From: a virus
Taxonomy: Duplodnaviria > Caudoviricetes
Virus record (IMG/VR): IMGVR_UViG_3300002220_000322
Span: 38,860-102,859 of that record
Strand: one strand, 5' to 3'
Length of the DNA stretch: 64,000 nt
Shown here: positions 1-29,118 of the stretch, one piece after another
Numbering within the stretch: the stretch's first letter is position 1
Layout: each line of letters starts with the position of its first letter
Made by a program: the position numbers and the translations under genes
Notes under the pieces: model-generated
What the model was told of the DNA's origin: nothing
Seen by the model: only the letters and a program-made list of their open reading frames with translations
The model's database searches: none

Positions 1-3000
1 ATAGGAATAAAAAGACTGAGCCAAATAAAACAAGATTTAGATATATCTATATCAGAATTAAATTCTATAGGAATGGACTCTTCTTTAGTAGAGTCTTTAA
101 AAAATATATTAAATAAGACTTTTTACCAAAAAGATAGGACACAAGATATATTCTATAATATAAACTTTGATTCAGAAGTAAATGATTCTTTAGTAGTTTT
201 ACCAGAAGAAAGTAACTCCCCTATTATATTTTATAATGGAATGAATGACATGTCTCTTTTTATGGGAACATTTAAATATCTTGGAACTAAATTATCTATT
301 GAGGAGTTAGTAAATATTATAAATGATTATAATAAGGAACTAATAAATAAAGAAGGTAAGGAAAGTAAAAATATAATAGATACTAATAATTTAACAGTTA
401 ATGATTTTTTTATAGGTAGTTTTAAAGAAACTAATAAAGGAATTGAGTTTAATGATCCTGAAATAAATAAAGTATTTAGATTCAAAAAAAATGCAGAAAC
501 TACTATAAACTCTATTATATCTTTAATTTCTTCTAAAATATCTGATTCTGAAACAAATATAAAAAAATTAGAAAAAGACTTCAAACGCTTATTTAAATTT
601 ATAGATCCAGATAAATATGGTAAAGGGGTAGATTCTATTGAACAAAGTATAATAAATAATTATGATATAGAACAAAAGGAAAATAAGCAACTTACTAATG
701 AAATAAAAGCAAAGGATATATTAAGTTATATAAGTATAAAAAATAGAGATTATCATTACTCTAGGCCAATAGTCAAAAAGGGACTAGATAATGAAGAAGA
801 TATGTATACATATCTATTAAATAATGTATCTAAGAATAGAGACTTACTATCTGTAACTATATTAAATAAAAATAAGTCTGTTTTTAATAAATTACTAGTA
901 CCTACAGAATTTCATATAATTTCTGGAGGAATAAGAGTAGTAGGATTCTATGAATCTGGTGGGGAGATTGTTTGAGAAAAAAGAGGATTTATATTTTTAA
1001 ATAAAGGAGAAAGTGAAATATCTCATAGGCAACTCTTAGAGGAAAATCCTATAATATATACTACAAATGCTGAAGAACTATCAAGTGATAATTCTATAGT
1101 AATAATATCCCCAGAAGACGATTTTTTACCAAAAGAATTAGTAGCAGAGGCTTCAGTTAGAGGAGGAAGAATAGTTTTTAGTACAGAAAAAAGTCCAAAT
1201 AAAGAAATAAGTTCAGTAATTAGGGGAGTATATCCAGGAGTTATAAAAGGAAATTCTATAAGAACAAAAGCCGGATCCTTGGAAGAAATATCAATATCTA
1301 CGGAGAGAGTTAAAAGACTTAAGACTGATAAAAGTTTATTTGAAGACGAATTTACAGAAGGGGAAATAGATAGAATGTCTTTTCTAAGATCTTTGGATAC
1401 TATAATTCCTACTAGAGACTTTATACCAGTAGAAAAGGGAGATTATATAGAAACCACAGTAGAGAGAAATGATAAAAAAAGTAAATTATATAATAAAATA
1501 GTAGCAACTTCTGATAAGGATGTTTATATATTAATTAAAACTTCTAAGGGAAATTATTCTGTAAAGCCTATAAATAAAAACTTAATATCTAAAATCTTTA
1601 AAAAGCCCATATCATTAGATATAGGTATAGTAAAAAAAGTAGGAAGTTTTCATAGAAAGGTTATAAATGATAAATCTATTTCTAAGGATAAGTTTTCTGC
1701 CATAGATTCTTATGAAGCGGCCAAGAAGGACGATTATTTAGTTAGTTATAGTAACGGAATTTATACTATATATAAAATAACTAATAAAGAAAATAGAGAA
1801 GGTATAGAAATTATATTAAAAAATGATGTAGAAATATCAAAAAAGTATTCTAGATTACCCGAAGAACTAAATAATTATTTTATAGTAACTAACAGAAATA
1901 TATACTCAGAACATGCTATAGATATAGCTGAAAAAAATAATATATTTTTAACAACTGAAGTTAAGCAGGAAGAAAGTATAGAATATATACCTATACAGTA
2001 TTTTGTGCCAAAAGATTATAAAATAGAGGATTTAACTATATTAGGATCTGGAATTTCTTTAGAGGGTAAAATATATATGCCTAATATTAGTGATCCTATA
2101 GACGAGAAAATATATAAAGACATAACTAAAGATTTGGCTAAGTACTTAAATGAAAAAAGAAAGATAAAAGGAGAAGATAAATTATATATAAAGTCTAGAA
2201 ATAATTATTATCTTAGATATAATGCCTCTTTGTATCAAACAGATTTTACTACTGACACTTCTTTTAAAGAGAAATATCTAAAAGAACATTCATTTGTTAC
2301 TCTGAAAAATCCTAATAATCCAGATAAATCAGGATCTAAAACATATAGAATTATAGGAAGGTCTGATACTATATTGACTTTAGAATATGCAGTTTTTAAT
2401 GACGAAGGTAAGCTTCTATCTATACAAAAGAAGCTTGATTTATCTAAAGAAGAAGATAAAAATAGCATTAAATGACTATATGTAATGAAAGGAAGCATTA
2501 GTCATAAGGAAATGACTGCTAGAATAAAAGAAAAAGAGTTATCTAGCCAACCAAAAACTAAGGAAGTCATAAAAGAGAGAAAAGAACTTTTATCTTCTAT
2601 CTCTCAGCAATTTATGAATATATTTAAAGTACCTTCTACAATAGTGTCTAATATAGGAAAGCCTGAATTATCTAAGAAAAAAGCATGAATTCAAGCAAGT
2701 ACAGATAATAAACCTATAATTTACCTTAATTTTGATAATAAAAACACAGACGAACATGATGTAGTACATGAATACTTGCATTTATTCTTAATGCCCCTAA
2801 AGTATAAAGAATTAGGAACTGGAGAGATAAATCTATACGAGGATTTAATGTTAAAATATAAAGAAAGTTATAAAGATAAAAAAGAAGGCAAAGACAAAGA
2901 CTTTATATTAAACTCAAATGATTGGTCTAAGATAGAAGAATATTTTGTAAGAGATGTATCTAAAGCTATAGTAGAGGGAGGAATAGAAGGAGTTATAGAT

Positions 3001-3231
3001 TACGGAACTTTTGTAAAGGCGTTTAATGAATCTTTATACTCTCTTGGTATAGAAGATTTATCTATAGATACTACTAATTTAGTATCATTATTAACTACTA
3101 GAATGTCTGAGATATTTAAAGGTACTAAAAGTAAATTAGCAAAAAGCGAATTAATATTATTTGATGCTAATTTTAGAGAGTGACTATCTAATAATCTTTC
3201 TAATGGAAAGTTAAAAATAAATTGCGAATAA
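1..3231 (+). CDS. 3' part of a giant crAss-type virion protein, TGA=Trp, with a zincin-like HExxH motif (5' end outside window)
   Basis: ORFs 73, 1279, 2485 and 2776 share one frame, broken only by TGA at 973, 2473, 2686 and 3181. First TAA at 3229-3231. HEYLH at 2767-2781. Confidence 0.8.
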
Positions 3232-3232
3232 T

Positions 3233-6200
3233 ATGGCATGTGAATATGAAATAGCCGGAGTTAAAAATAGTTTAAATTTTGGAGAAGTAATAAAATATTA
3301 TTATAAATCTACTGGGTTACTCGCTAATACTAATATATTTAGTAGTGAGGAAATAGTAGCCAGTGTTTATAGTAGAATACAAAAACAATTAGATAAACAA
3401 AATTTAAAACAAGAAGTATCAGATGATAAAGAAGTATTATCTAAGGGCAAAGGTAAGGTGGCTGTATTAGATTATATTACAAGTCAAAATAATACTGATG
3501 TATATAAAAAAATAGGGTTAGATAAAGATAGACTAGTACCAGAATATAATAAGGATAATTATATATTAAATGAGACTAAAAGAAGGATAAGACAGGATGG
3601 TTTTCCTGCTCCTGAAAAAGACTCTTTAAAAGATATTTTGGAAAAATATCCACAGGCTTCTAAATATGTATCTGAAATAGAAGAAGAAATATTTATAGGA
3701 GAACAAACTAAGAATCTAAGTTTAGGTATCCATAATATACTAGCTAGGATATTTAGAGAAGAAGGAGAAGTTAGTGATTATACCAGAGGAATGCTTCGTA
3801 AATTAATAATAGACAATCAAGATTATTTACATGGAGATATTGATTTATGAGTAGATAAATTTATTTCTATATTTGATAATTTATATGAAAAGATAACTGC
3901 CAAAGGAGAGAGAGTATTAACTGAAGTAGTATTAGAATCAGAAGAAGCTGCCCTAGCCCAAGTAAGGGGTAAAATAGATATACTAACCATTGATAGTTCT
4001 GGAAGAACTCATATATATGATATAAAACTATCAAAAGACCTATATGAAGATTGAAGCTCAGAAAGAATTTTACAAACTGATTATCAATTAGCTTTTTATA
4101 GAGCATTATTAGGACAATATGTAAAAACTGACGATGCAACTCTAAATATAATACCTATTAGATTAGGAGGACTAAATGCAGATAAAAAAATAGATGTAAA
4201 TAATCTAGTATTGGATAAGATAGTAGATAGACTTTCACAAGAGGGGGGTAAAGGATTATTAGTAACAGGAAGGATTTATAAAACAGCTAGATTATTAATA
4301 CCCAGTACTACTGAACTATTTTATGATCCAGAAAAGATAGAAGAAGTTAAATCAGATCTATCTCTTATATTTAAAGACTATAATATAAAAACCTCTGGAA
4401 GTGATTATGATGTAGAAACTTTGCTGGATAAAGCAGTAAAGCAACAAGGAATAACTATGTTTCTAGAAGGATTTGAAGATCCTAGAGCACATATAAGAAA
4501 TAATAGATTATTTATAGATCATAAAGTAGGGGATAGATATAAGACGGAAGAAGAATTAAGGATAGAATATAGACCTATAATAGAAAAGTATGTAGCCTTT
4601 GCAAAAATGTCAGAAAACAATAATGTATCTCAGTTAATGCAAAAAATAATATCTTCTATTGATAAAAATGGGGAAACAATACAGATGATGAATCCAAGAG
4701 ATCAAATTATAGTAAATAATATAGCTCATCAATATATAAATGGAGATTATGATGTAGTCAGAGGTTCAGATGAGTTAGTTTCTTTAGGTATTATATTATT
4801 AAGAAATAAAAAATATGGATCCTATGTACTATTAAATATATCTTCCCATAATCAAAAGGATAATTATGATAATAAATGGTTATATAGAGATGTAGATTTT
4901 ATAAAAGCAATGGCTTTTTTAAATAGATACCATAAAGACCTAGACTTAGATTTTAATAAAGTACAAGACATAATAACTTATAATCCTTTAGAAAACCAAA
5001 TATTTTATAAACACCTAGAGTCTGGTTTTAGAGAATTTGATGTTCTTATGAAAGAACATGGCCTAACTTTAAATTTAAAAAATTCACATATATTGCCAGC
5101 AGAAAAGAAAGCTTCTATAGAAATTAGGGAAGCGCAAAGATATATATCTAATAAATTGTCAGAGGGAGACAAGGCTTCACTAAAATCAATACTTGATAAA
5201 TATTCTGAGCAAATAGAAGACTTGACAGTAGAAAGACTGAAAAATATGGTTAAAGATTTTATAAAAGCTTTTCCTAATTTAGAAAAAAAATCTTTTGAGT
5301 CAGGATTTGACTTTAATAATCATATAGAATATCTATTCGGAATGATTAATACACTACTTCTAATAAAAGCTGAACAAATTCCTATGGGAGATTATACTGG
5401 ATTAAATAATTTTAATATTAATTTTTCAAGTATATATGATATATTTTCTGGCTTCTTTAAGAATACTAGAGAATACGACGCAAAAGAAAAAAGAATATTA
5501 TCTTTTATGGATGGTTTAAAAATGGCTACCCCAGATAGAATAGGATCTAAAGATTTACAGAATATAAATATAATGTTATCTGGTACTAACTCTTTTATTA
5601 GACAAAGTTTTTATAAACAATCTACTATCATATCTGGACTAACCAGGAAATATTATGATTCTATAAACTATACTAATTGAGAACAAAACTGAGTAGGAGA
5701 TCATAGAACAAAGTTTCAAAATATGTGATTTAAAACTAGTAATGGCAACATTTCTATGGAATGGAGAACTAAAAATCCATATTCAGATTCTTTGGAGGAT
5801 AGTATGACTGAATCGGAAAAAGAATATTTAAAAGGTATTCTCTTTGAAATGAATAAAAGAAAGTTAAATATTCCTAAATCAGAGTTAGATAAAGCAAATA
5901 TAACTACTCTGGAAAGCATGGAAAAAACTATGCCAAGTACTTATCAGAAAATAGTTAAAATGATTGCTGATAAGACATATTTTAAAATGCCCTTAGTTAG
6001 ATCTCAACAAATAGGAAGACATACTTCAGTAATAAGAAAGGGATATGCTCATGCTGTTGATGTTTATAAACAAGAAATGTATAATTCAATAGACTCAAGA
6101 GAATTAGAATCTGATGAAATAAGGAGTCTAAAAGAAAGATTGGGATATTATGAAATGTATAATATTTATGATAGACAGACAGATAAGTTTAAAGAAGAGG

Positions 6201-7876
6201 CTATAGAAACCAAAGGGATAGATTATTTTGAGTTAGATTTAGACGCTATAAGTCATAGACTTACTTTTAATCAAATAAGAAAAGCTCATTTAGACAACAT
6301 TCTTCCTGTTATAAATGCTTATACGTGATGGATGAAAGTACAATCTGGAAAAGCAGGGGAGGATATATCAAAAGAGCTAGAACATGTAAAAAATAGAATA
6401 AAATTAGCTGCAGCAGATGAGTCTATAATAGACCCAGAAGCAGAAGATGTAGTACAGGCAGCTACGGTTGTTAAAAAAATAACTACTGCTGGTATGTTGG
6501 CTTTTAGACCAGCTCTATTTTTAAAAGAGATGACTATAGGACTTTATAAGGGATCTATGCTAGCATTTACTAAAATATACGGAGGAGAAGAACAATTTAC
6601 TATATCAGATTTAGGAAAAGCATTAGGAAAACTAGCAACTATAGATAAAAAATTTGCTAGAGAATGAAATATGATTGATGGAATAAATAATGAATATGGT
6701 TTTGCGAATAGAGACGTAAACTCCTTAGCCCCAAGACTTCAAAGTAATAGAAGGGGTCTACATATGGGCTTAGGTCCGTGAATGTATATTATGAATACTG
6801 TTCCAGATTATTATAATAGATTAGCATTGCTTTTAGCTAAAATGATACATGATGGTTCTTATGATGCTCATGGATTAGACAAAGACGGATATTTGACTTA
6901 TGATCCTAAGAAAGATAAAAGATTTTCTTATTATTTTGAAGTTAGAGATAAGTATAAAGCTGAAGAAGGAAGTGTTGTTAAGTATAAGTCTTCTAATGCA
7001 GATAAATTATATAATAAACAAAAAAGCTTATATAATCTCCTAACAGACCAACTAAACTCTGAAAGAATAAGAATGGGATATGAAAAGTTTAGTGAAGGAG
7101 ATATTGTAGATAAAGCTTATTCTGAATTAGAAAGATCAAGTTATAAATCTTTTGTAGACGGTGTTTATGGATATTATGATGTGGATTCTCAATCTGAAAT
7201 ACATAAAACATGGTATGGAATTTTATATTTACAATTTTTACAATTCTGGCCAGGTAAAATGAATATGTGATTTGCTAGCTCTAAGAAGAAGGGAGTAACT
7301 CCTACCGGAAGATTTGAACAAATGAGTAAAGAAATTGATGGGAAAAAAGTTTTACTTTGAAGAAGAGAAGTTATAGACGAGGAAACTGGAAAAATTACTG
7401 GTTTTGAAATTACTGAAGAAGATACTGGAGACCCTGCATATGAATGAGTAGGTACACCGCAAGAAGGATTGGCTATTGCCCTAATGATGACAGCTAAAGA
7501 TATAGTCACTTTTAATTGAAGTAACATAAAATCTGATGATTTAAGAACTAGAAGAGCTTTATATGGACTTTCTGATGGCTTATTAATGCTTATATTTTTT
7601 GCTATTATTTCTAATTTATTGAAAGCATATAGAGAAGAAAATGGGGATGATGGTATAGACGGAGAAACTATAAGATTTATAGATGCTGTCAATGATAAAA
7701 TATTAAATGAAGCTAATATTTTAGATAATACTTTTGGGGCACTAAGATCTAAACCTGCTTTTTGAACTTATAGTACCAGAGTAGCTGGTAATGTAATAGA
7801 TGTAATAGAGGGAGACAGAACAGCAAAACAAGCTTTAGCTAAAAATATAAGAGCATTTGAATTTTTAGAAGAATAA
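3233..7876 (+). CDS. 1547-aa giant protein (TGA=Trp) with an internal PD-(D/E)xK nuclease-like domain
   Basis: One frame from ATG 3233 to TAA 7874 with 13 in-frame TGA and no TAA/TAG. Motif GKIDIL..HIYDIK..YQLAFY at ~3968-4100. Confidence 0.85.
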
Positions 7877-10151: not shown

Positions 10152-10208
10152 TTTTATTCATTTTAAAGAAGTATTTTTTTAGTAATGGATTATATTAACT
10201 TTATATAA

Positions 10209-16390: not shown

Positions 16391-16444
16391 TTATAAGACT
16401 TTTGAAGCAGTTACGCTGTTAATGATGTTACTTTTTTTAATAAT

Positions 16445-16478
16445 GAAAAAAAGGCCAGTAGTAAATACTACTGACCTA
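16445..16478 (-). terminator. intrinsic terminator
   Basis: Minus-strand hairpin AGGTCAGTAGT...ACTACTGGCCT followed by a U-run. Confidence 0.7.
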
Positions 16479-16493
16479 TCTAGAATTGTTTGG

Positions 16494-17078
16494 TTATTCA
16501 CGGGTGAAGAAGATAAACTTACCCATTTTTGCTGATTTTGAAGGAGTATATTTACCATAAGAGGCATATTTTTGTCCTTCAGTTACTTCTTTTACAATCT
16601 CAATCACATAATCTTTTTTGTTAGCTTCAATAAGCTCTTTCATTTTCTTTACAGCTACGTCTTTTTTCTCTGCCTTAGCTTCTACAGCTCCTACAGATAA
16701 TACCTCAACTGTTACCTCAACAGAGGTTTCTCCTTCTTCATTTACTACTGGACGTTCCTTAGTTTTAAAAGTACCTTCTTTAATTTGATAGGTAGTTTTA
16801 GTTTTCCTTTTTCCATGAGTAGCCTCGTTAATTACATTATAAGGACGTAACCTTGAATCATCAGTTGCGGGATCTACAACTAAATATGCACCCATAACTT
16901 TATGTTCCTTAATATAATTCTCCATGAAATTTTTCAATTCTTTAGAATTTACAGGAGAACCTTTACGTTTCCATGACTGAGTTGCATTTTTCAAATCTTC
17001 TAATTCAACTTCTAAATTTGTTGATTTCAGTGCTTTTTCTTTTGAATAACCTTGTGCTTCTACGATTTTCATATTCAT
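16494..17078 (-). CDS. hypothetical protein (own promoter and terminator)
   Basis: Long ORF with an upstream TATCTTTG box. Confidence 0.7.
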   Translation of the reverse strand: MNMKIVEAQGYSKEKALKSTNLEVELEDLKNATQSWKRKGSPVNSKELKNFMENYIKEHKVMGAYLVVDPATDDSRLRPYNVINEATHGKRKTKTTYQIKEGTFKTKERPVVNEEGETSVEVTVEVLSVGAVEAKAEKKDVAVKKMKELIEANKKDYVIEIVKEVTEGQKYASYGKYTPSKSAKMGKFIFFTRE

Positions 17079-17136
17079 TTACATTTTTAAAATTTTAATA
17101 AAAAATATCTGGTAAGTCTATCATCTAAATACTATA

Positions 17137-17144
17137 CAAAGATA
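17137..17144 (-). promoter_or_regulatory. Bacteroidota-type -7 promoter box
   Basis: TATCTTTG matches TAnnTTTG and lies in an intergenic gap. Confidence 0.6.
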
Positions 17145-17189
17145 CATACTTAAATTGAATAAAACAATAAAAAGTATGTTAATAAATTG

Positions 17190-18107
17190 TTAAATTGACA
17201 TTGATTTATATTTTCCCTTAACTTCAGTATAATCTTGTTTATGTATTGTATGTAAGATTTTACTAAAAGCTTCATCTATAGAATATTCTAAAAGGAAAAT
17301 ACAAATATAAAGTTCTTTTAAATCTGCTAGGGAAAGGCCCTCACTTCTAACTACTAGTTCTTCCAATTTAGTGTCAGGAACTCTCTTAAATTTAAAATAT
17401 TCTCTCCTAACTACTTCATTTGGATAATCTATAGCTATCCTTAAATCTATTCTACTAGGTCTTAAATAAGTATCATCAAGTTCTTCAGTGTTATTACTAG
17501 TAGCAATGATAACATGATGTTCTATTTGAAGCTTTCCATCGAGAAAATCTAATAGATACGATTCATAATCTGAATATTCATCTATATCCTCCAGTATAGT
17601 TATAATAGGAGTAGTGGGCTGAATTTTTCTAAAACTATTTTTTAAAAAAGAAATATAATGAACTAAATTACTAGGACCCTCTACTTTAAATACTATTCCC
17701 CCAGATTTTATAATTCTGTCTGAAGCAAGAGATATAATAGAACTTTTACCAGTTCCAGGATATCCTTCTAATAAAATACCTCTTTTATGAACTAGTTTAT
17801 TTTCTTTATAAAGATCTGATTTTTTCCAAAATAAATCTATTTCTGATAATAGAGTTTCTGTTTTAGAATCACTAAAGATAAATAATTCATCTGAACAAAC
17901 AGTTATTTGTTTGCAATAAATACCATAGTCCCTACTAAACTCTACAGAATATAATCCGGGGTCTAATTTACCTTGCACTTTAATATTAGTAGAGGGTCTA
18001 AAAATATCATCTTCTACTAACCACAAAGAAATGGGTTTATCTGACATAGGTCTTGTTGATACCTCATCAGCTTCTATAAAAAATATTGAGTCTAAAATGG
18101 AGTCCAT
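17190..18107 (-). CDS. AAA+ ATPase
   Basis: RGILLEGYPGTGKS, ILEDID, ATSN and LRPSRID. Confidence 0.9.
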   Translation of the reverse strand: MDSILDSIFFIEADEVSTRPMSDKPISLWLVEDDIFRPSTNIKVQGKLDPGLYSVEFSRDYGIYCKQITVCSDELFIFSDSKTETLLSEIDLFWKKSDLYKENKLVHKRGILLEGYPGTGKSSIISLASDRIIKSGGIVFKVEGPSNLVHYISFLKNSFRKIQPTTPIITILEDIDEYSDYESYLLDFLDGKLQIEHHVIIATSNNTEELDDTYLRPSRIDLRIAIDYPNEVVRREYFKFKRVPDTKLEELVVRSEGLSLADLKELYICIFLLEYSIDEAFSKILHTIHKQDYTEVKGKYKSMSI

Positions 18108-18514
18108 GTATTTAATATTTGTTTTATTTTATTTATTATTTCGTCAGAAGATTTTAAACCACAGCTATTTGCAGACTTATGTCCATAAGATAAATCTTCT
18201 ATAATTATTGAAAAATTTTCTAAAGAATTACTAAAGCTAGAAGATATATTAGGGCCTACTATTTTTTTAATTATATCAAAAGGAGTTATTTTAGGATTTT
18301 GTTCCTTAAGTTTTAAATAAGTAAGACAAAGCAACGATATTAAAACAAGAGTTTGTTCAACGCTATTACCTTCTATATATCCTATACTAAAGGATAAGTC
18401 GTGTAATTTCTTTTTATCTGCATACTCTAATTTATTTATCTCTTCACTTAGCTCTCTTATTTTAGAATAATTACTAGAATCCGATGGGTTATTTTTTAAC
18501 TGTTCATTTTCCAT
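18092..18514 (-). CDS. hypothetical protein
   Basis: ORF in operon. Confidence 0.6.
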   Translation of the reverse strand: MENEQLKNNPSDSSNYSKIRELSEEINKLEYADKKKLHDLSFSIGYIEGNSVEQTLVLISLLCLTYLKLKEQNPKITPFDIIKKIVGPNISSSFSNSLENFSIIIEDLSYGHKSANSCGLKSSDEIINKIKQILNTWTPF

Positions 18515-19548
18515 ATAGCAATATCAGTTAATAACTTTTTAAATTCTTGTATTCCTCTTTTTACATGAGCATTTTTAACTTTATATACTTTAGTCTGAAA
18601 ATTTGGCACAGTCTCTAAAACAACCATATTAGCATTAGTTTTATAAATAAGACCAAATTGTTGTTGTACAGCACATTGTGCTAACCAAGAATACAAAGCT
18701 ATCTGTCTATAATATCTATATTTCTGAAAAGACCCATCAAACCACTTCCAAACACTTTTATCTTCTTCTACTACTTTAACTCTATTACCCATAAAAAAGG
18801 TAATGGGTTTACTTGTAGTTTTTAAGTCATTTATAATTATGATATTATTATCATGATCTATTAACAAATTGTCAAGCTTACCTTTTATTTTAAGTATTAT
18901 ACTCCTGTCTCCTACGGTAACTTTAATATCACATAAAATAGCATACTCATTAAAAGACTCAATAGAACCTTTAAGTTGTTCAGGATATACAAATTTAGTA
19001 ACATCCGAATTATCTAAAGCAGTTTTTATACAAGAATAATATTTTGAATAATTACTATCAGATAAATAGATAGGACATTTACCAAAATTTTCCTTCCTTT
19101 CAATTTGCTCTTCGTGTCTAAGATAATGATAATATTTGAATCCTGTCTTTAAGGCTGTTTTTAATCTATTACTAGATAATTTTCCTTTGTAGTAATCTGC
19201 AGAAATAGAAGCTAGGTTTACACACTCTACAATACTATAGCCTAATTTTCTATTTTTAAATACCTCTTCTATAAATATACCTAATTTTCCGCCTGGCTTA
19301 ATAAATTTGGATATATAAAATAAATCTTTTTGAAGTAAGGATGCATGTATAGCACCTCCTAACTCAAAAGAAGAAGAATACTCAGATTTAAATCCTTCTT
19401 CAAATTTTTCTATAGAACCTCCTTCATCTGGGTTTATGAGACTTAACTTAGAATTAGATATATATTCTTTATACTGTTCACTAAAATATATAGCATCATC
19501 CATTTTAGTAAAGATAATGCTATCAGGAATTATTTCAATTTCCGCCAC
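18496..19548 (-). CDS. PD-(D/E)xK exonuclease (RecE/ExoVIII-like)
   Basis: SNSKL, G.AIH, KGKLD, DLKTT and YYRQIALY. Confidence 0.8.
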   Translation of the reverse strand: MAEIEIIPDSIIFTKMDDAIYFSEQYKEYISNSKLSLINPDEGGSIEKFEEGFKSEYSSSFELGGAIHASLLQKDLFYISKFIKPGGKLGIFIEEVFKNRKLGYSIVECVNLASISADYYKGKLSSNRLKTALKTGFKYYHYLRHEEQIERKENFGKCPIYLSDSNYSKYYSCIKTALDNSDVTKFVYPEQLKGSIESFNEYAILCDIKVTVGDRSIILKIKGKLDNLLIDHDNNIIIINDLKTTSKPITFFMGNRVKVVEEDKSVWKWFDGSFQKYRYYRQIALYSWLAQCAVQQQFGLIYKTNANMVVLETVPNFQTKVYKVKNAHVKRGIQEFKKLLTDIAIWKMNS

Positions 19549-20036
19549 AAATTTAATATATTATTTATATCGAGATCATATACTCGATAGGGTGTTTTAA
19601 TTTTCTGATTATGAGAGGCATCCATAAGTAAACAAAAAATACCATTAGAATGACATTCCCTAAAAGTTTCTACTTTATCGTCTATAAATATGTCACATTC
19701 TAATTCTTTTAAAACTTTTATCTTACTTTGTCCCCAAGAAACTTGATGAACATTACTTCTTCCCGGAATATTATTTAGTTTTAATGATTCTTTTGTCCAG
19801 GATTTGGGAATGCCTCTAGCGCTAACAAAACCTTTAGGTTTAAAATTAGGTCTATTTTTTAAAGATAAAGATAACCAAAATTCTTTTTCTTTGCTTAATT
19901 TTGTTAATCTTTTTTTAACAAGATTTGAATTTAACCAAGACTTAGGAACTTTAGTATTAAATCTATCGGCATATCCTTCGTACCAATTAAAAATAACATC
20001 ATCTATATCTAAATAAATATTGAGAGATTTTTTCAT
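19530..20036 (-). CDS. HAD-family nucleotidase-like protein
   Basis: LDIDDV and IFIDDK motifs. Confidence 0.75.
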   Translation of the reverse strand: MKKSLNIYLDIDDVIFNWYEGYADRFNTKVPKSWLNSNLVKKRLTKLSKEKEFWLSLSLKNRPNFKPKGFVSARGIPKSWTKESLKLNNIPGRSNVHQVSWGQSKIKVLKELECDIFIDDKVETFRECHSNGIFCLLMDASHNQKIKTPYRVYDLDINNILNLWRKLK

Positions 20037-20039
20037 AAT

Positions 20040-20354
20040 TTATAAAGTTAATTGTTCATAATCTTTAAAGTCTTCTAATTCTTTGCCTGTAATAACTTCT
20101 TCTATTGTATAATGAAAATACTCATCATAGATCATAGAAAGATGTTCTAATTCTTCAGGAGTTAACTCCTCATATTCTTTATATGGAAACTCCTCTTCAA
20201 GTACATATTCTTCACAACCAAAAGACTCAAAATTTTCATAAGCCAAAGTATTGGCAAATATTTCTATTTCATCTAATTCTTTATCTGTGGTTAGGACATA
20301 TGTATTATCCATACCGCACCAATTAGTGCTTACTGTTATTAAATATTTCTTCAT
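20040..20354 (-). CDS. acidic hypothetical protein
   Basis: ORF in operon. Confidence 0.55.
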   Translation of the reverse strand: MKKYLITVSTNWCGMDNTYVLTTDKELDEIEIFANTLAYENFESFGCEEYVLEEEFPYKEYEELTPEELEHLSMIYDEYFHYTIEEVITGKELEDFKDYEQLTL

Positions 20355-20680
20355 TAAAAAGTTTCGTATACTATGGTATCCATTTTATTTTCTAGAAAAG
20401 CAAGAGTTTCTGAAGTTATCCAAGGATATTCTGAAGTATCTTTAAGAACAGATAATTCATAATATAATGAAGAAAATCCATCTTCGTAGCCTTGTTTTAG
20501 TCCTACATAAGACCCTTCCTCAAATCCTTTATTGTAATACTCTACTGCAGAAGTAGAAATATCCTCCATAAGATCATTAATTTCAGGTTCTAATTCTTGT
20601 AACAATTTAGAAGAAAGGTCATAATCATCCTCTTCATATCCAAAATGTTTATTTAAAAATGAGGAAATAATATTAATCAT
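20354..20680 (-). CDS. hypothetical protein
   Basis: ORF in operon. Confidence 0.55.
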   Translation of the reverse strand: MINIISSFLNKHFGYEEDDYDLSSKLLQELEPEINDLMEDISTSAVEYYNKGFEEGSYVGLKQGYEDGFSSLYYELSVLKDTSEYPWITSETLAFLENKMDTIVYETF

Positions 20681-21098
20681 TTAAATAAGTTTTTAATAAT
20701 TCATAAAAAAATTCTTTGGGAATTATAGCAAATTCCCCCATTGAAGTAATATTTACATTACCTTCTTTTTTTTCTTGAGCATTTCATATAATGCATAAAG
20801 GTTTATCAAGTTTTCCTACCTCAGTATTTAATTTTTTAATACTAGGAGTAGTTTGAGTTTTTTTAAGTTGAAAATAACAAGGAAGAATTTTATCTTCGTC
20901 ATTTATATCTATTTTCATATCATCTAATTTTTTACTAGAAGATCTTGAGGTTGATATGTTTTCATTGCCTGTTAATTCTTTTAACTCATTAACTATTTGT
21001 CTTTCGTAAGCATTACCTTTATTTTTACTATAAGAACCTGCCTTTTTCTTTTTAGGCTTTTCTTCTGTTCATTCTTTTTCTATTTGTTTCTTTGCCAT
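20673..21098 (-). CDS. Hjc-like Holliday junction resolvase, 141 aa, two in-frame TGA (absent from the ORF track)
   Basis: MAKKQIEKE*TEE..KNKGNAYERQIVNEL..KIDI..FQLKKT..LCII*NAQ. Fills the gap between its neighbours exactly. Confidence 0.8.
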
Positions 21099-21100: not shown

Positions 21101-21298
21101 TTATTTCATCCATTCTGTAAAACCCTCTTCAATCGCTTCTAGGGGAGAGAGAGTTGGGTTAAGTTTCATAAATTTTAAAGCTGAAAATATCACCTCTATA
21201 TCTAATTCCTCTTCTCTAGCTATATCTATAAGTTCCATAATCTTATCATATTGTTCTGCGTCCCTCATACCTATTTCATCAAAAAATAAAAAATTCAT
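21101..21298 (-). CDS. hypothetical protein
   Basis: ORF in operon. Confidence 0.55.
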   Translation of the reverse strand: MNFLFFDEIGMRDAEQYDKIMELIDIAREEELDIEVIFSALKFMKLNPTLSPLEAIEEGFTEWMK

Positions 21299-22329
21299 TA
21301 AAATACATAAAAATGTTTTGTTTGTTTTATAGATTTATCATTAATTATTTGATTTAATTCTTCTACAATACTCCAAAATACATTAGAACTTACTTTTTTA
21401 TATAAATCACTAATATCTTTTGAATATTTTCTTTTAATAAATATACATCTGACTCCATAGTTTTTTATATATTTTTTAGCTCCTCTAACTCCAGCTAAAT
21501 CATTATCAAAGAAAACAAATATGTTTTGAAATTTATCTTTTATTTTCTCCATTTGAGATTCAGTCATTATAATATTTTCTGAGGTAGGAGCTATAGAAAT
21601 AAAGCCATATTCATGTAATAGTAATAAATCTTTCATAGATTTTATTATTATACAATGACTTCCTGCCTTTGGAAGTTGCTTACTTCCATGCCAATGTCTG
21701 GAGGTCCAATTACTAATAAATCTATATTTCTTTTTAGTAGGCATATATAGTCTCCAGAGCTCATCTCCGTTGGAATTCTTACCGCCGTAGTATCCATAAA
21801 TTGGAGATGAGTCTGTGAAACTATTAAAATAAACACCATTTAAAAATATATGTTTTATAGAATATACTCTAAACTTTTTAAGGGTTGTTAAGGATATTCC
21901 AAATGAACCCCACCAAGATAACTCTTTTTCAGAAAAATCTTTAATTTCTACTTGTATTATAGCTTTTTCAGTTTCTTTAATAATAGAACCTGTATAATTT
22001 AATTTAGGTTCGTTTATAGGATAATTCTCCATTTTTATATAGCCAAAATCGTTAGCTATAATATTTAGAGCTTTATAATAAGAAACATTAAAAATATACA
22101 TTACTATTGAAACAAAATCTCCAGAGATACCTGCAAAGTCTTTAAAAATTAAATCACCCCTTTTATTCTTATAGAAAGAACAAGTAGGATGATTATCTTT
22201 TCTTAAAACAGAAGGGCTTTTAAAAAGCCCTTTTTTGACAGGAACTCCTAAATAATGCTCAAAATAAGCCTCAGCAGGAGCTTTTTCTAATAAAAATTGT
22301 TTAGTTATTCTTGGCGGTAATTCAAACAT
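21298..22329 (-). CDS. DNA primase (TOPRIM)
   Basis: R.DNHPTCSF, FKDF, KSMKD, FDND.AG and KDISD. Confidence 0.85.
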   Translation of the reverse strand: MFELPPRITKQFLLEKAPAEAYFEHYLGVPVKKGLFKSPSVLRKDNHPTCSFYKNKRGDLIFKDFAGISGDFVSIVMYIFNVSYYKALNIIANDFGYIKMENYPINEPKLNYTGSIIKETEKAIIQVEIKDFSEKELSWWGSFGISLTTLKKFRVYSIKHIFLNGVYFNSFTDSSPIYGYYGGKNSNGDELWRLYMPTKKKYRFISNWTSRHWHGSKQLPKAGSHCIIIKSMKDLLLLHEYGFISIAPTSENIIMTESQMEKIKDKFQNIFVFFDNDLAGVRGAKKYIKNYGVRCIFIKRKYSKDISDLYKKVSSNVFWSIVEELNQIINDKSIKQTKHFYVF

Positions 22330-22340
22330 ATATTAAATTT

Positions 22341-23036
22341 TTATAATTTAAAAGATATATCTAGACCATGATCTACTTGTGGAGTTTCAAACATGGTAGT
22401 AGCATCTACCTCAGTGGGTTTAGCTGTTGTAGAATTTTTAATTCTATCTGCTTCATATGGAGTAAATGCAATTTTACTCCCGATAAAGTTATTTCTAATG
22501 TATGCTTTACCGTCTCTATTTACAGAAGCAAAAAATCCAGGAAAAATAGCTTCTCCTTTATTATTTTTAAGAAGTTTAATCTTAGTGACGGCCCCAATAC
22601 CGGGCTCCAATACAGCTGCCACAACTTTTCTTAGATCTTCCCAATTTTTAGCCTTAAGACTGGCTTCTCCTTTATCAATTTTACTTGCTACTGTAGGGTT
22701 GATACTATCTATAGCATGTTTAAGTAATAACATAAGGCTCTCAACTCCAGAAGGTTGAGGAATTTTTTCAACATTACCATTTTTATTAGTAAATTCTCTT
22801 TCTGTTCTTTGATATTCATCTTCTTTTGGTTCAAAGATTGTATGTTCGTATACTCCATCCTCATTAGAAAATTTTAATATTAAAACTTTGTATAATTGTG
22901 AAGGGTCTTTAACGCCTTGAATATCTTTAATTTCGCATCCATCAAATTTTACAGTGTAAATTTCATTACCCTCTAATCTAGGTTTAATAGAACTCTGAGA
23001 TGATCCTGCTGTATTGTCAAATGAAAAAAAGCTCAT
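22341..23036 (-). CDS. putative ssDNA-binding protein
   Basis: Replication context, beta-rich N-terminus and acidic/aromatic tail. Confidence 0.4.
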   Translation of the reverse strand: MSFFSFDNTAGSSQSSIKPRLEGNEIYTVKFDGCEIKDIQGVKDPSQLYKVLILKFSNEDGVYEHTIFEPKEDEYQRTEREFTNKNGNVEKIPQPSGVESLMLLLKHAIDSINPTVASKIDKGEASLKAKNWEDLRKVVAAVLEPGIGAVTKIKLLKNNKGEAIFPGFFASVNRDGKAYIRNNFIGSKIAFTPYEADRIKNSTTAKPTEVDATTMFETPQVDHGLDISFKL

Positions 23037-23041
23037 ATTTA

Positions 23042-23584
23042 TTATAATTTAAAAGTTAATTCATGTATCTCTGTTGTGTCATCATCTTCAGTTAATAAAT
23101 CTGGTTCTATGTTTTCAGCCATTTCTTCAACCTGCGCTAAAGTTTTAGGTTCTGTAGACTCTAAAAAGAAGATTCCAGGTTTAAATTCTTTTAATTTAAA
23201 GGTTGTGCCATATTCTGCTAATACAGTATTTGCTTTACCTCTGTAAGTAACTGTATTTGATTTAGTTACTTTATTACCAGATCCCTCTTCTTCAAAAGAA
23301 AGATCTGATCCTATAATAGGAAGTCTAGTCTTGCCTACTTTTTCGTACTTGATAATTATTCTGTCCTCTGGCTTAACATCTAGATCTGCTGCACATTTAT
23401 TATTAAGTACTAACTTATTATCTTCCCTAATTAAAATAGCTTCATCTTCCATAACTATTTCTTTAGTGGGGGCTTTTTTAGTAGTTCTTTTCTTTTTTTC
23501 TATACCATCTACAAAGGTAGTAAGGTTAGAAACTAATTCGGTTTCTGGATCAAAATCGAATGTTACTGTTACTTGTTTAATCAT
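23042..23584 (-). CDS. hypothetical protein
   Basis: ORF in operon. Confidence 0.6.
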   Translation of the reverse strand: MIKQVTVTFDFDPETELVSNLTTFVDGIEKKKRTTKKAPTKEIVMEDEAILIREDNKLVLNNKCAADLDVKPEDRIIIKYEKVGKTRLPIIGSDLSFEEEGSGNKVTKSNTVTYRGKANTVLAEYGTTFKLKEFKPGIFFLESTEPKTLAQVEEMAENIEPDLLTEDDDTTEIHELTFKL

Positions 23585-25472
23585 TTAATGAAGGATAAAT
23601 ATTTTCCCAATAAGCAGTTATCTTGCCGGTTTCATTATCTTTAGAAGTCAACCTTAAGGTTTTTCCTGACAGGTGGGGCATTCTAGCACCACAAAGAACA
23701 GAATTCATATCTCCAAAATTAGCCATCAAATCCCCAGTTTCAATGTCTCTATAAACATAGCAGATGGCATCACTGGAGGCACTTAATATTCTACCTAATT
23801 TACCTGTTAAATCTAAATCTTTAACATTTAATTCTGTACCATTTTCATTTAAAGCTTTATCTTTTACGTGACCTACAAGAATAATATTAGGACATACTTT
23901 AGTAAACCAGCTAATTACATTTTGAATAGCTTCCCTAACGTATAAATACATTTTGTTAACTTACACTTTCATGTAAGATCAGACTATATCTTTAATTTTT
24001 TGTATGTGAATAAATATACCCATTATTTAGAATTTTATCCAATTTATAACGTAATCCTTCTTTTTTAAAACCTTCTTGTAATTCACAATAGCTTCTGGAA
24101 TGAAAAGTTTCTATAAGATTATAATCTTTATCATATTTATAAACCCTTTTTGCTCTAGCATTATTTTTACTAGCTTTTTCTTTTCATTCTTTAGATTTTT
24201 CTTTATTTTTAGCTCAATGTTGAGTTTTATAATCTTTACATGGATCATATTCTTCTTTATAAAGAAATACATAATCTTTTAAATAATTTAAAGTATGTTT
24301 ACATACTTTAGATATATTTGATGTTGTTATATCATAAAATTCAGCTGCTTCTGAAATAGAATTAAATTCTTTTTCTAGTTCTCCAGTAAATCTATTTACT
24401 GAAACAACTGCTTTACCTCTTGCTTTTTTAAAGTTTTCTATTGCTTCTTCATTTTGTTTAAAATGTACATAATTAAGACAAATATCTGTCATATTATATC
24501 CATTTTTAACACTATTATACTCTTTAATATATCCTTCTTCTATTTTTAACAATTCTTTTCTTTCTATACCATCAGGATAGAAATCAAAAATAATTATCTC
24601 AAAATTATCTTCTCCATGTTTATTTCATGAATTTTGAAGTTTTGTAGAATGATGTCTAGATTTTTTTAAATAAGTATAATGTCGTTTTAATCTCTTTATA
24701 ATAGATTCTGCTGAACCTATATAAATTTTGTTAGAAACTACATTTTTAATTCCATAAATTCCCGAATAACTTGGTAACTCTTTACAATTTTTAAATTTTA
24801 TCATTTTATTTAGTTTAAAATTTTACTTATGTAAAGTTACAAAAAATTATTCTAACTTTTCCCAACATACAAATATTGTTAGTATTTATATGTAAGTACT
24901 CCCCTGCCGAGGATAGTCGTTGAACCTTCAACCAAAAAAATTAATTTTTGGAAGCTTGGATGCGGATTTCCCAATTCTTTTTGATTTTACTATACCTTTC
25001 ATCGTTACTGAAAGCCATTATATATATTACTACTATAATTTAGTTAAAAAGACTCTAAGGGGTTTCCCGCAGTTAGTTAGAAATGAGCTATTAAATAACC
25101 CGCACCATTAGGAAGTTTAAGAATGTTTGCATCAGGACTAAAATTTACTCCCATTGGAGTGTCTCTATATAACTTATTTGCATAAGGAAGTACAATATCT
25201 TCTAAAGCTGTAATAGTATCAAGTATCACAAAATCAAATCTGCCTGGATTTTCTTTTAAAGCTTTAGCTATTTCAAATAATTTTAGGTAGCTGTCAGCCT
25301 TAACACTGTAAGCTTCAACATAATCTGTACCATCTTCTAAGTCAATATGAAGAGCTTTTGGTAAAAAAGAAAGAGCTGTAGTCTTTCCACACTTAGGCAA
25401 TCCAAAGATTATGAGATTTTTGGGATTTTCTGTTTTAATTTTAGTTTTTTCTTTTGGTAACTCGAAACTCAT
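23577..25472 (-). CDS. Sak4/AAA_24-like P-loop ATPase, spliced (exons 25472-25098 and 23948-23577)
   Basis: GLPKCGKTT, IDLEDG, ILDT and LVGH. Junction PNGAG|YLYVREA. Confidence 0.85.
23949..25097 (-). mobile_element. group I intron in the ATPase gene
   Basis: U|...G boundaries; R element near 24915 and S element near 23985. Confidence 0.88.
23992..24804 (-). CDS. intron-encoded GIY-YIG endonuclease, 270 aa, three in-frame TGA
   Basis: SGIYGIKN..YIGS..RLKRH..LQNS*NKHGEDNF, with NUMOD1-like repeats. Ends at TAA. Confidence 0.85.
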
Positions 25473-28400
25473 TATAATATAAATAAATTTTTAGATTCTT
25501 CTTCATCTTCATCACTCTTATAATCTAAATTTAAATAAGGCTCGTAATCTGATATAAGTTCTGGTTTAGGCAATTCAATAAACATACCAACCTCACCATA
25601 GAATCCTAATCCCTTATTAACGTCTGCCTGACCATATCTATTCTTAAGTAATTGACAAAGTCTAAATCTTTTCTTTAATATATTTTGAATAGGATATCCT
25701 TCACACCTGGCAATTTTTTCTCTATAGGGATAATATAAAGCTAATACAACGTCAGAGCCGTCAGTAGTACCAGAAGTATCTTTAAACACTATGTTATCTT
25801 GTAGGCTCTTTATCCTACAAATCTACACTTTTATATATATGTGTAGGTCAGACTATCTCTTCAATATCCTTTAAGTATTGATATACATAAGATATTGCTC
25901 CGCACTCGTGGGCCTTCATCTTCTTCAACATCACTTGTTAAGAAGGTATGACCTAGTCGTTGATCCTTCATTGTATTTCTACAAAGCTTGGATTAGGGTT
26001 ATCCTGTCGGACTTTCCCAGATTCACGAAGTTTAATGATGACTTTTATAATTTATATTTCATTGATTCAACAATATAAGGTTCGATTAATTTTTTAAAAG
26101 CTAATTTACTATCAGATAAAACATATAGACCATTTTGAGAATTAATAGAAGTATTAATATTAAATTTATTATATAAAACATTTTGTATAATATCCAAATC
26201 TTCTTTAGAAAAACTATGTGTACATAATAAATAACCTCCATAATCTTTATATTTACTTCCATCATCCATATACCAAATCGCAAGTCCAAGTGCTTCTATT
26301 TTCTCAAATAAATTTTTATTAATATATTTTACTTTATTTTTATAAAACATATCATAAATATTATTTAGTGCAGGATTTGAATTTATATACCAGTACCATT
26401 GTTTATAACTAGGATTTTGTAACCTTTCATCGTACTTATCTACAAGGCGAGGTTTCTTAGAAATATTTTTTAAATAATTATATTTAGTAAATATTAATTC
26501 TTCTTGTTCTAAACAATGATTGCAGGTTCCGGTGCAATCTCCATTATTATACCTTCTATATAAATGTGTATCTCCTAAAACAGTTCCTAACAATACTTGA
26601 AATTCTATATCAGTTAGAGGAATAACTTCTTTCTTTTCTTTATGAGGAGGTAAAGAAAGTTTATTTCTTCTTTGTATAATATATCCTACAGATGTATTTA
26701 ATTTTATAGAAATTTGTTTATCTGATAATTCTAAATTATAAAATTTTAAAAACTCTTCATTAGTAAAATGTCTTCTATCAACTTTAGCAAGATTTAAAGA
26801 TTTTCTAAAAAATCTTATTTTATCTTCTGAACAGTTGAATTCTCTTCCTATTTCAAGATCTGACATTTTTTTATTATAAAAAGTTAAAAATTTTTCTTTA
26901 TCTATTTTTTCGTAATTAGCTTTTGAATTAGATTTTAGATTTAATTTTTTACATCGTCTACTAGCCTGTGCAGCAGAAATTCCTGTTTCTCTGCAAATTT
27001 CGGCTTGAGTTAATCCTAAACTATGTAATTTTATAAACTCTTCGTCTGAAATAATCTTTCCTTTTTTTGTTGTTTCCATATTTATTAATTTTATTTTTAA
27101 CAAATTTAATAATTTATTTTTATAAAAATTAATAAATTTAAAGAAATATAAGTTAGGAAGTTCATAACTTTATTATTTTAATTCCTAACATTTTCTCTAT
27201 CATCAAGCTGATACAGTTCATAACCAGAAGTTTTTCTTTCCACTGATTTTGAATTTCTATTCATTTGTTGTATAAATACCCCAGTTAATCCACATTTATT
27301 TCTAAAATAAATTGCATAATCTACTGTTAAATCTATACGTTCTTTTTTGGTTCCTTGTCCACTTATTAAACCAACGTGGTCCCATAAAGCTACTTTATAG
27401 ATTTCAGGATCAAGTTCAACATAATCTTCTCTGTGGTCATCTATTTGTACAAAAGTTCCAAATCTTTTTAACCATTCTTTTAAAGTAGCATAAATACCAT
27501 TAGGATTTAATGATTTATCATAAATAGTTAAATGAGAGGCTATATCTTCAAGCCAAGGAATAGATAAGTCTACTAATTTTTTTTGTTCTTCTGATATAGG
27601 ACTTATAAGAGAAAGAATATCTTTATACGTAACAATTACACTATATTCATCCCAAATATGCCTAGATAATAGTTTAGCAAATAATACATCACTAGACATT
27701 TCAAAAGAATAATATAAAATATGTATTTTTCTATCTCCCCTATTCTTTAATAAATTATATACAAATATATCTAAAGCAAAACTAGTTTTACCCGTTATAT
27801 TGCGAATATACCGATTCCGTATATTCTCTCATACTTTCACATGAGACTAGACTATATCATCAAAGAATTGCTTCTTTGCCATCAGCTTCGAGTTCTCTTG
27901 AACTCTACTCCCTCTCCAGGGATAGTCGTTGAACCTTCTCCATATCATAAGACTTAGGAGCTTGGCTGCTGATTGCCACATAATATAATATTTTTAAACA
28001 TTTACGTTAAGAATTTCTTCATTCGTTTTAGTTATTATATCTTCGCGGGTTCCCAGCAATTCAAATGGTTTGCTATCATAAATGATAGGGGCTTTTATTT
28101 TAAAACAAAAATATCTGTTTTTAAATATACTTTTATTATTTATACAGTTTGTTATAGTAACTCTAGAGTTTGTATTTAATCCAATAGCCTCAAGAAAAAT
28201 TGAAATACTGTCAAAAAAAGAGTATGTTTTTTCAATTATATCTTGAACGACTAAAGTACTTCTCTTTTGAGGAGCTCTTGCCCAAATAAATTCTATTGGC
28301 TCAAATGACCAATATGAATCAAAAGCAGTAGTAGTCTTTCCTCAAAGATTTCTTTGTATAACAGATGTTGTGTTATTTGGAGTATTATAATGCCTATTTG

Positions 28401-29118
28401 CATCATTTATTACTTCTCATTCCTTAATAAGTTCTCCAGTAAATCTGTTATATTGATAACATTTCTTTGTATTAGTTTTTTTAATTAATCCTAACTCTCT
28501 TTTTTCTCTGAGAGTATTATTAATTTTTTGCCTAACTTCTTCTGAAATAATACAAGTATTTGCAATACAAGATATATTATAACAAATGTTATCAAATCTA
28601 TTGTCAATTTTATTAAAAAACTCTTTAGCTCCTAAGTTGTCTAAATAATTTTGCTCTATATCTAATAAATTTTTTACGTCACATTCTTCTAAAATAGAAA
28701 ATTTAAAATTGTCTTCTCCATACTTATTTCAAGCATTTTGAAGTTTTTTATTTTCATGTTTATTATGACGTAACAAAGCCTTGTGTTTTTGTCATCTTCC
28801 TTTTATATTTATAGAAGATCCAATATATGCTTTATTATTTACTGTGTTTAAAATTTCATATATTCCTATCATATTATTAAATTTATAAGTTATACAAATT
28901 TAACAAATGTGGATGATATAATCAGCAAAAGTATATTAATAAATAGTTAATTTATTGTTAAAAAATCATTAACCCGAGCTATCTGCTCCAATAGTATAAA
29001 GATATTTTCTCTGGATTCCATAAATAATAGAATCAATAACAGGTAATCCTGTACTTATTCCAATATTTTTTCCAAGACCTCCTCTCTCAATATTATGTAA
29101 TAGATTCTTAATTCCCAT
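25472..29118 (-). CDS. DnaB-like replicative helicase, three exons (29118-28972, 27792-27199, 25786-25472; 351 aa)
   Basis: Walker A GADSSG|GKTS, YSFEMS, WDH, QQMNR and QLDD|FKDTSG..DVVL, LLKNRYG. Confidence 0.88.
25787..27198 (-). mobile_element. group I intron 2 of the helicase
   Basis: U|...G boundaries; R element near 25955 and S element near 25855. Confidence 0.88.
26045..27079 (-). CDS. intron-encoded LAGLIDADG endonuclease with N-terminal HTH repeats
   Basis: LLGTVLGDTHL and LAIWYMDDGS. Start set at METTKK, downstream of the promoter box. Confidence 0.88.
   Translation of the reverse strand: METTKKGKIISDEEFIKLHSLGLTQAEICRETGISAAQASRRCKKLNLKSNSKANYEKIDKEKFLTFYNKKMSDLEIGREFNCSEDKIRFFRKSLNLAKVDRRHFTNEEFLKFYNLELSDKQISIKLNTSVGYIIQRRNKLSLPPHKEKKEVIPLTDIEFQVLLGTVLGDTHLYRRYNNGDCTGTCNHCLEQEELIFTKYNYLKNISKKPRLVDKYDERLQNPSYKQWYWYINSNPALNNIYDMFYKNKVKYINKNLFEKIEALGLAIWYMDDGSKYKDYGGYLLCTHSFSKEDLDIIQNVLYNKFNINTSINSQNGLYVLSDSKLAFKKLIEPYIVESMKYKL
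27793..28971 (-). mobile_element. group I intron 1 of the helicase (inside Walker A)
   Basis: U|...G boundaries; R element near 27925 and S element near 27855. Confidence 0.9.
27994..28872 (-). CDS. intron-encoded GIY-YIG endonuclease, 292 aa, four in-frame TGA (absent from the ORF track)
   Basis: MIGIYEILN..YIGSS..R*QKH..LQNA*NKYGEDNF. Confidence 0.87.

Follow-up and report, generated by a model that had tools for sequence, protein, structure and literature searches.

Stop-codon recoding has been described in gut phages as a brake on late or lytic genes (Borges et al., bioRxiv 10.1101/2021.08.26.457843). The same study applied this timing argument to the Agate phages, in which a TGA-recoded group I intron endonuclease lies within an early gene. 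Here we examined a predicted Hjc-like nuclease gene with two in-frame TGA codons (20673..21098, minus strand) in a stretch of 64,000 nucleotides from a virus of the Caudoviricetes (IMG/VR record IMGVR_UViG_3300002220_000322, positions 38,860 to 102,859), hereafter called the window, whose numbering is used throughout unless otherwise noted. The reading that we favor, with somewhat better than even confidence, is that a core nuclease of Hjc-like type is held behind a TGA codon in a replication operon otherwise written in the standard code, and that this arrangement serves timing and probably also dose.

The arrangement resembles that of the Agate phages in having standard-code replication genes, late genes in which TGA is read as Trp, and an early-region endonuclease that prefers TGA over TGG (2:0 in this case). 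The proposed effect is also the same, namely that no protein is made until the code is switched. In contrast to Agate, gating here would apply to a resolvase-like core gene that is conserved and non-mobile, and would depend on one particular codon, close to the start, that has been kept across many lineages. The principle of standard-code early genes, recoded late genes and a recoded endonuclease within an early gene is already published, and a resolvase is not mentioned in that report (0 occurrences; Borges et al., bioRxiv 10.1101/2021.08.26.457843). What is new is the gene, a conserved resolvase-like core gene, together with codon-level evidence for an opal codon maintained near its start.

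Similarities were also noted to zeta crAss-like phages such as Lera (PMC12386605), including complete relatives of ~178 kb and 20-30 tRNAs with UCA and CUA suppressors among them, opal recoding located mainly in structural and lysis genes, and a few scattered genes of the early block marked as TGA-containing. By annotation, the gene order of primase, 'holliday junction resolvase', 5' nucleotidase and exonuclease is shared as well. However, in Lera no suppressed TGA is listed for the resolvase, which is longer (552 nt).

A further parallel is provided by phage T4, whose endonuclease VII has its main role in debranching DNA at packaging and can also cut stalled or regressed forks. The gene for this enzyme, gene 49, is reportedly held back to late translation. 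In T4, early or middle transcripts also carry several homing endonuclease genes (I-TevI, segB, mobE) and further late genes whose translation is held off until late, and the papers cited for such late-only translation include the one on gene 49 by Barth et al. 1988 (PMC2988022). As in T4, the nuclease gene examined here would lie inside an early polycistronic unit, and we propose that translation rather than transcription is restrained. The means would differ: in T4 an RNA hairpin conceals the ribosome-binding site and a late promoter is used as well, whereas the proposal here is a stop codon that becomes readable.

The nuclease gene and its tryptophan codons

The nuclease gene was read on the minus strand as 141 codons followed by TAA, with its ATG at 21098. 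An alternative in-frame ATG at 21113 would lengthen it by five codons, and a plus-strand reading of 20673-21098 was rejected, with no open frame being found. The first in-frame TGA, which we term the opal gate, is codon 10 (21069..21071, minus strand) and falls in a Lys/Glu-rich, poorly conserved N-terminal tail, while the second is codon 105 (20784..20786, minus strand) and occupies the position of a clade-conserved Trp in a core beta-strand (strand 101-110 of the structural model). A first-pass annotation of this DNA had described a 141-codon frame with TGA at these two codons, set among neighbors without internal TGA. Reverse-complement translation confirmed the frame, which contains no TGG, and all 24 called genes downstream on the same strand (7929-20680) and five genes upstream (21101-23951) were found to be free of internal TGA. 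The annotation had further presented the gene as a lone recoded gene and a single-gene device, and this part did not hold, as two GIY-YIG genes of the same block carry internal TGAs and the homing endonucleases of relatives are recoded too.

The source contig is 102,859 bp long with 27% G+C, and the window is its final 64 kb. When mapped with TGA as Trp by stop-to-stop frames and gene calls, it resolved into two blocks. The late, virion-type block of giant genes (contig 2968-46735; window 1-7876; plus strand) has 1-15 in-frame TGAs per gene, and its end comprises two giant genes (1..7876, plus strand) with 5 and 13 of them. The early block (7929-64000, minus strand) encodes DNA ligase, exonucleases, primase, helicase, DNA polymerase, RtcB and a tRNA array. 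TGA accounts for 69% of the Trp codons in the late block (96 TGA versus 43 TGG), as compared with 6 TGA and 154 TGG in the other early-block genes, from which the nuclease gene differs with its two TGA and no TGG (Fisher exact test; p = 0.002). The six early-block TGAs each lie a few codons from the end of an open reading frame (ORF) and are probably real stops. TAA is the usual stop in this genome, and a few early genes terminate at TGA shortly ahead of a TAA or TAG; the idea of a backup stop behind these genes was discarded, the spacing being at chance level for DNA of 27% G+C. This concentration of TGA in late genes matches the type of phage that recodes TGA to Trp and keeps the standard code in its early genes (Borges et al.; Yutin et al.), and the clade consists of large crAss-like phages that read TGA as Trp in late genes and resembles the zeta group.

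Conservation of the near-start TGA among relatives

Two scans of IMG/VR recovered 97 nuclease loci, and the closer clade was grouped at 90% identity into 25 clusters. The first-pass annotation had proposed a comparison of TGA and TGG at these sites in relatives, which came out in favor of retention: the tail codon is TGA wherever the tail is present, the core codon is mostly TGG, and 23 of the 25 clusters keep at least one TGA in the gene. Across the clade, the nuclease has 27 TGA versus 18 TGG among its Trp codons, compared to 19 versus 497 in 226 flanking genes on the same strand. The Lys/Glu-rich tail with one Trp position was identified in 19 of the 25 clusters, and TGA stands there in every case (19/19), with TGG, TAA and TAG never seen. 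This codon sits 10-18 codons after the start, and the leader of 9-17 codons before it is variable in sequence and yet in frame with the body of the gene in all 19 clusters. No conserved ATGA or other nucleotide context was found upstream of the gate in these clusters, and the base that follows it is G in 15 of 19.

The core Trp shows a different pattern. In a codon alignment of 18 gate-bearing clusters, from which the truncated L083 was excluded, the tail Trp is TGA in all 18, whereas the core Trp is TGG in 16 and TGA in two, these being the window and L061 (tail 19/19 versus core 2/18; p = 1e-8). The third positions of invariant Lys, Glu and Gln columns served as a control in the same 18 clusters; all 16 such columns are A/G polymorphic, with A at a frequency of 0.69. 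Judged from these aligned sequences, drift does not readily account for the contrast between tail and core, or for that between tail and control columns. In clusters without the tail gate the core Trp is TGA in four of six, against two of 18 in clusters that have it (p = 0.018). In the nine sequences first compared, the core TGA was noted in the window, L013 and L017. Because codon 105 aligns with a TGG-encoded Trp in most relatives, TGA means Trp here, which bears out the earlier view that the full-length protein requires TGA to be read as Trp. As a separate observation, L013 and L055 have TGA at codon 34, where all other relatives have Leu (TTA or CTT), so that TGA and TTA interchange at two sites of the nuclease, codon 34 and the gate.

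The gene itself appears to be well maintained. Its frame is intact under TGA as Trp in all 97 loci, and pairwise dN/dS values are 0.07-0.25 among the closer lineages, rising to ~0.45 in pairs with L017, the most distant, with dS above 1. The low dN/dS and the intact frames therefore indicate a gene under purifying selection and not a pseudogene. Its place directly after primase is kept from 85% to ~40% identity and the gene occurs in nearly every relative; within the clade it is probably a vertically inherited core gene directly after primase. The standard-code relatives G008 and G009 and the TAG-recoded G007 have a nuclease without TGA, and an amber gate was sought in the TAG-recoded relative (G007; L073) and not found. 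In relatives, 10-11 TGAs were counted in homologues of the late giant gene, while the G007 homologue has seven in-frame TAGs. It was noted that neighboring lineages of the group differ in their type of recoding.

Under the reading that we favor, ribosomes meeting the gate while TGA is still a stop would release a 9-residue peptide and no nuclease. Once a suppressor tRNA (tRNA-Trp-like, anticodon UCA) accumulates, the full nuclease would be made, and the homing endonucleases of the early block, whether free-standing or in introns, would be handled likewise. The proposed benefit, by analogy to T4 endonuclease VII, is that replication and recombination intermediates would be spared until concatemers need debranching for packaging. 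Nuclease production would thus be late or limited. That a second TGA is avoided points to limiting suppression at the time when the nuclease message is translated, and the gate may set dose as well as time.

The same avoidance also speaks for a limiter of dose instead of a clock, in which the opal codon mainly keeps a dangerous nuclease scarce throughout infection through competition between suppression and release factor 2, with no switch from off to on. In relatives the gene has essentially a single TGA and a second one is avoided, the core codon being TGG in 16 of 18 despite the frequency of A-ending codons (0.69) and of TGA in late genes (69%), which suggests that each TGA is costly for this gene; several translational means of negative nuclease control are also well documented in T4. 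However, late genes bear 10-15 TGAs each, so late suppression must be efficient and a single TGA would attenuate little, and the gene in the window has two. A limiter of dose is compatible with timing rather than exclusive of it, and as the main explanation we consider it unlikely.

Predicted operon context of the nuclease gene

Directly upstream in the same orientation lie a 65-codon ORF (21101..21298, minus strand), whose TAA ends 2 nt ahead of the nuclease ATG, and the DNA primase gene (21298..22329, minus strand; PHROG 12622, E 2e-43; Toprim_2), which has six TGG and no TGA. The 65-codon ORF is missing from most relatives, and there the nuclease ORF overlaps the 3' end of primase. Downstream, a 108-codon ORF (20354..20680, minus strand) without TGA overlaps the nuclease stop with its start by 8 nt. 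A scan for sigma-70 promoters and terminators returned sites no commoner than in shuffled sequence, and for a host of Bacteroidota type the sigma-70 scan says little. The nuclease gene showed neither late-like nor foreign codon usage, its codons outside Trp being early-like. This early-like codon usage and the tight packing without intergenic space favor co-transcription with the replication genes; for primase in particular, the shared strand, the 2-nt gap or overlaps and the lack of any terminator found are compatible with a putative common transcript.

These features bear on a passive account, in which the nuclease is needed only late and has its own late signal, and TGA was acquired through AT-biased drift with no regulation. 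With 27% G+C, TGA is dominant among Trp codons wherever it is allowed, a gene with two Trp codons would be expected to have at least one TGA in ~90% of late-type genes, and some lineages have lost every TGA and kept the gene. Drift, however, predicts similar TGA fractions at the two sites, as opposed to the 19/19 and 2/18 that were counted, and it predicts A/G polymorphism at the gate like that of the 16 control columns. The early-like codon usage outside Trp also runs counter to this account, and the gene abuts or overlaps its neighbors, leaving no intergenic room for a promoter. We regard passive tolerance as improbable.

Predicted fold and family of the nuclease

We found 477 relatives of the nuclease among 1.8 billion representative sequences, while the GenBank phage collection, searched also by tblastn, gave only two matches, both distant and in unannotated records. 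In an alignment of 58 diverse homologues, G28, E32, R52, D59, D64, Q77 and K79 are invariant. The predicted catalytic set of Glu32, Asp64 and Lys79 aligns with Hjc residues in a PD-(D/E)XK pattern that has Q-x-K in place of E-x-K, and the Hjc motifs KG..ER, S.SK, D and then x-K align in turn. A profile of the 58 homologues was compared to the sequences of the Protein Data Bank (PDB), and Hjc chains made up its top four matches (E 0.03-0.12), in which the motifs line up; a profile of close relatives had produced noise only.

An AlphaFold model from the 58 sequences (pLDDT 91, pTM 0.78) superseded an earlier one from nine close sequences (pLDDT 70), for which Foldseek gave no useful match. With the later model, Hjc 1gef took Foldseek ranks 1-2 (E 0.2). 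It was also the top match of VIA-align, which works independently of Foldseek (Z 7.0, rmsd 3.5 over 95 residues), followed in rank 2 by Hje 1ob8 (Z 6.0) and in rank 3 by A. fulgidus Hjc 2wcw (Z 5.7); the lower rows were mostly other PD-(D/E)XK nucleases with some unrelated entries, and a Z below 8 counts as a moderate match only. Model and fold searches agree in size and topology with the small PD-(D/E)XK fold of ~120-140 residues seen in Hjc and Hje (PDB 1gef, 1hh1, 1ob8, 2wcw) and in Hjc of Thermus phage 15-6 (7bgs). In contrast to these proteins, the predicted nuclease described here has an extra Lys-rich N-terminal tail.

The window protein matches PHROG 244, labeled 'RusA-like Holliday junction resolvase' (E 5.4e-7). 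RusA has a fold different from PD-(D/E)XK. No RusA structure appeared in the Foldseek or VIA fold lists, and both the model and the motifs are of PD-(D/E)XK type, so the PHROG label probably denotes function and not fold. For PF01870 (Hjc), the window protein had no match, and a distant homologue reached 16.6 bits against a cut-off of 21.1. For PF24608 (PDDEXK_15), the window protein scored 18 bits (E 0.0029), below the gathering cut-off of 27 bits; 20 of the 58 family members match at E <= 0.01 (best E 1.6e-5), and some database homologues bear a precomputed PF24608 match. On these sequence matches the PF24608 family is related to the nuclease, though below threshold. The first-pass label of Hjc-like thus survived in part, with the best fold and profile matches being to Hjc, while those matches are weak and the PF01870 threshold was not reached. 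The sequence and model comparisons weakly favor Hjc-like as the best label for the predicted nuclease, which is at most a candidate member of the Hjc family, and its preferred substrate would presumably be the Holliday junction.

Other TGA-bearing genes in the early regions

Only three genes of the early block have internal TGA, and the other two are GIY-YIG homing endonuclease genes. One (23992..24804, minus strand) lies 2.9 kb upstream of the nuclease and has TGA at codons 60, 197 and 207 with no TGG; the other (27994..28872, minus strand) lies 6.9 kb upstream and has TGA at codons 27, 48, 152 and 177 with two TGG. Internal TGA was detected in 10 of the 226 flanking genes of relatives. Pfam assigns four of these to GIY-YIG or NUMOD domains and one to DUF723 (zinc finger), while four more merely resemble homing endonucleases or have no Pfam match, and in the last the TGA is probably a real stop. 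Scattered TGA-bearing genes were also encountered in other, mostly TGA-free regions of the complete relatives. A further gene at 26045-27079 (minus strand) combines a D5-like N-terminal part with a LAGLIDADG endonuclease-like part and, unlike the nearby GIY-YIG genes, has three TGG and no TGA; an in-frame, intein-like endonuclease could not be translated separately from its early host protein.

Given this company, the nuclease could itself be, or descend from, a free-standing PD-(D/E)XK homing endonuclease passed between recoded phages, with TGAs that reflect its origin like those of the GIY-YIG genes. Homing endonucleases account for all the other early-block genes with TGA, both in the window and in relatives, I-Ssp6803I is among the fold matches (Z 4.7), and distant homologues are fused to NUMOD-like or zinc-ribbon modules. 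A mobile origin nevertheless appears very improbable in view of the post-primase position conserved from 85% to ~40% identity, the near-universal presence in relatives, the strong purifying selection and early-like codon usage, and closest fold and sequence matches that are junction resolvases and not homing enzymes. The fused modules were noted in L101-L104 (~3850-4400) and in L077 and L080 (~3815-4400), as N-terminal NUMOD-like helix-turn-helix or DUF723-type zinc-ribbon modules, a kind of architecture that homing endonucleases typically have. The ORFs of L080 and L101-L104 each have a TGA close to their end that resembles a real stop.

It is also hardly credible that a short upstream ORF truly ends at the codon-10 TGA, with the nuclease starting downstream by reinitiation. 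The peptide encoded ahead of this TGA is short, its sequence is poorly conserved, and a few relatives have ATG or GTG soon after the TGA. In the window, however, the stretch from codon 10 to the catalytic Glu32 is free of ATG, GTG and TTG. Although the leader differs in length among the 19 clusters, in none of them does it slip out of frame with the body, and the codon that ends it is not once TAA or TAG, though TAA is the usual stop of the genome. The second TGA of the window lies in the core regardless. That the gene is a decaying pseudogene, its frame broken twice by nonsense mutations under the standard code, can be dismissed: the comparative data refute it (dN/dS 0.07-0.25 at saturated dS), over 90 related loci have an unbroken frame, the catalytic residues are invariant, hundreds of TGA-as-Trp sites occur elsewhere in the genome, and the pseudogene-like decay that the first-pass annotation had named as a possible refutation was looked for in orthologs and not seen.

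Suppressor tRNA and other RNA genes

The relatives G002 and G003 encode a tRNA(UCA) that has a CU-NCA-AA loop and G73, as in their tRNA-Trp(CCA). The only Trp-type tRNA in the tRNA arrays of relatives is tRNA-Trp(CCA), and the UCA suppressors lie elsewhere. They were found apart from the main array in a mostly TGA-free block (L028, G003:22000-38000; L029, G002:153000-169000), which also holds a few heavily recoded small genes, such as a 123-codon gene with five TGA and no TGG. When these suppressor neighborhoods were compared to the contig by tblastx, no match was found and the positive control worked. The tRNA(UCA) region of relatives thus has no counterpart in the contig, and it is an inference for this phage that TGA would be decoded as Trp by such a phage-encoded tRNA(UCA). 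The whole contig (G000) showed neither a terminal repeat nor a circular overlap. Complete relatives are ~178 kb, and from this figure the contig is probably ~58% of a genome. As a probable fragment, its absences carry little weight.

Several other RNA genes were noted. Relatives also encode tRNA(CUA) amber suppressors (L019, 4698-4772; L020, 9913-9986). A tRNA-like gene at 59038-59161 (minus strand) has a long variable arm, A73 and a 41-nt insert in the anticodon loop; it was called Trp(CCA) in the intron mode of ARAGORN and is the only Trp-type candidate in the contig. It adjoins a gene for an RtcB tRNA-splicing ligase (57303-58487, minus strand; PHROG 1075, E 8e-133). The tRNA-Trp(CCA) genes of relatives are intron-less, two of them with long variable arms. 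The tRNA array comprises 15 genes at 41406-45564, and just downstream of it is a full-length tmRNA match (46200-46570, minus strand; RF00023, 50.2 bits, gathering score 47). An ARAGORN tRNA call with anticodon UUA, which would read TAA (62991-63074, plus strand), lies on the strand opposite to the block and inside an ORF, was not confirmed by Rfam and is probably a false positive.

Weighing the proposed translational gate

Several observations weigh against a TGA-gated nuclease timed by the code switch. No tRNA(UCA) was detected in the 102,859-bp contig by ARAGORN (default, intron and relaxed modes) or Rfam. The gate is dispensable, as L047 and L050 have TTA (Leu) at the gate site and no TGA in the gene, and the nuclease of G006 (loci L057-59) is TGA-free even though its late giant gene has 10 TGAs. 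Relatives at <=50% identity have TGAs in primase and other replication genes, which makes the island pattern specific to this clade, and the lineage counts given above are phylogenetically non-independent. The nuclease gene may have a separate late promoter, and the timing of its expression is pure inference. With regard to the protein, similarity to Hjc is marginal (14-18% identity; Z 7.0, or Z 7 and E ~0.03-0.2 over fold and sequence matches, with E 0.03-0.12 for sequence), and the third catalytic position, which is Glu in Hjc, is an invariant Gln77 in all 58 homologues.

A stronger form of the gate hypothesis would treat the one opal codon 10-18 codons into the gene as a dedicated, selected gate that, in this clade, ties nuclease production to the rising level of suppressor tRNA, with the TGA kept there and further TGAs excluded. 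Taken together with the recoded homing endonucleases, this would amount to a general rule by which the DNA-cutting enzymes of early operons are placed behind the code switch. We put this form forward tentatively, as a possibility that has somewhat more against it than for it.

Recoding is thought to time late and lytic functions in these phages, and the evidence so far has come mostly from the bulk distribution of recoded codons. In the case described here, one codon of a single conserved gene appears to be under selection as a stop that can be read, and the regulatory hypothesis is thereby reduced to a small testable case of one codon and one nuclease, for which the phenotype to be expected, in DNA replication or packaging, is clear. 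Annotation under the standard code splits or loses this core gene. If the translational gate is real, it suggests that the class of early-region genes that these phages hold back consists of DNA endonucleases.

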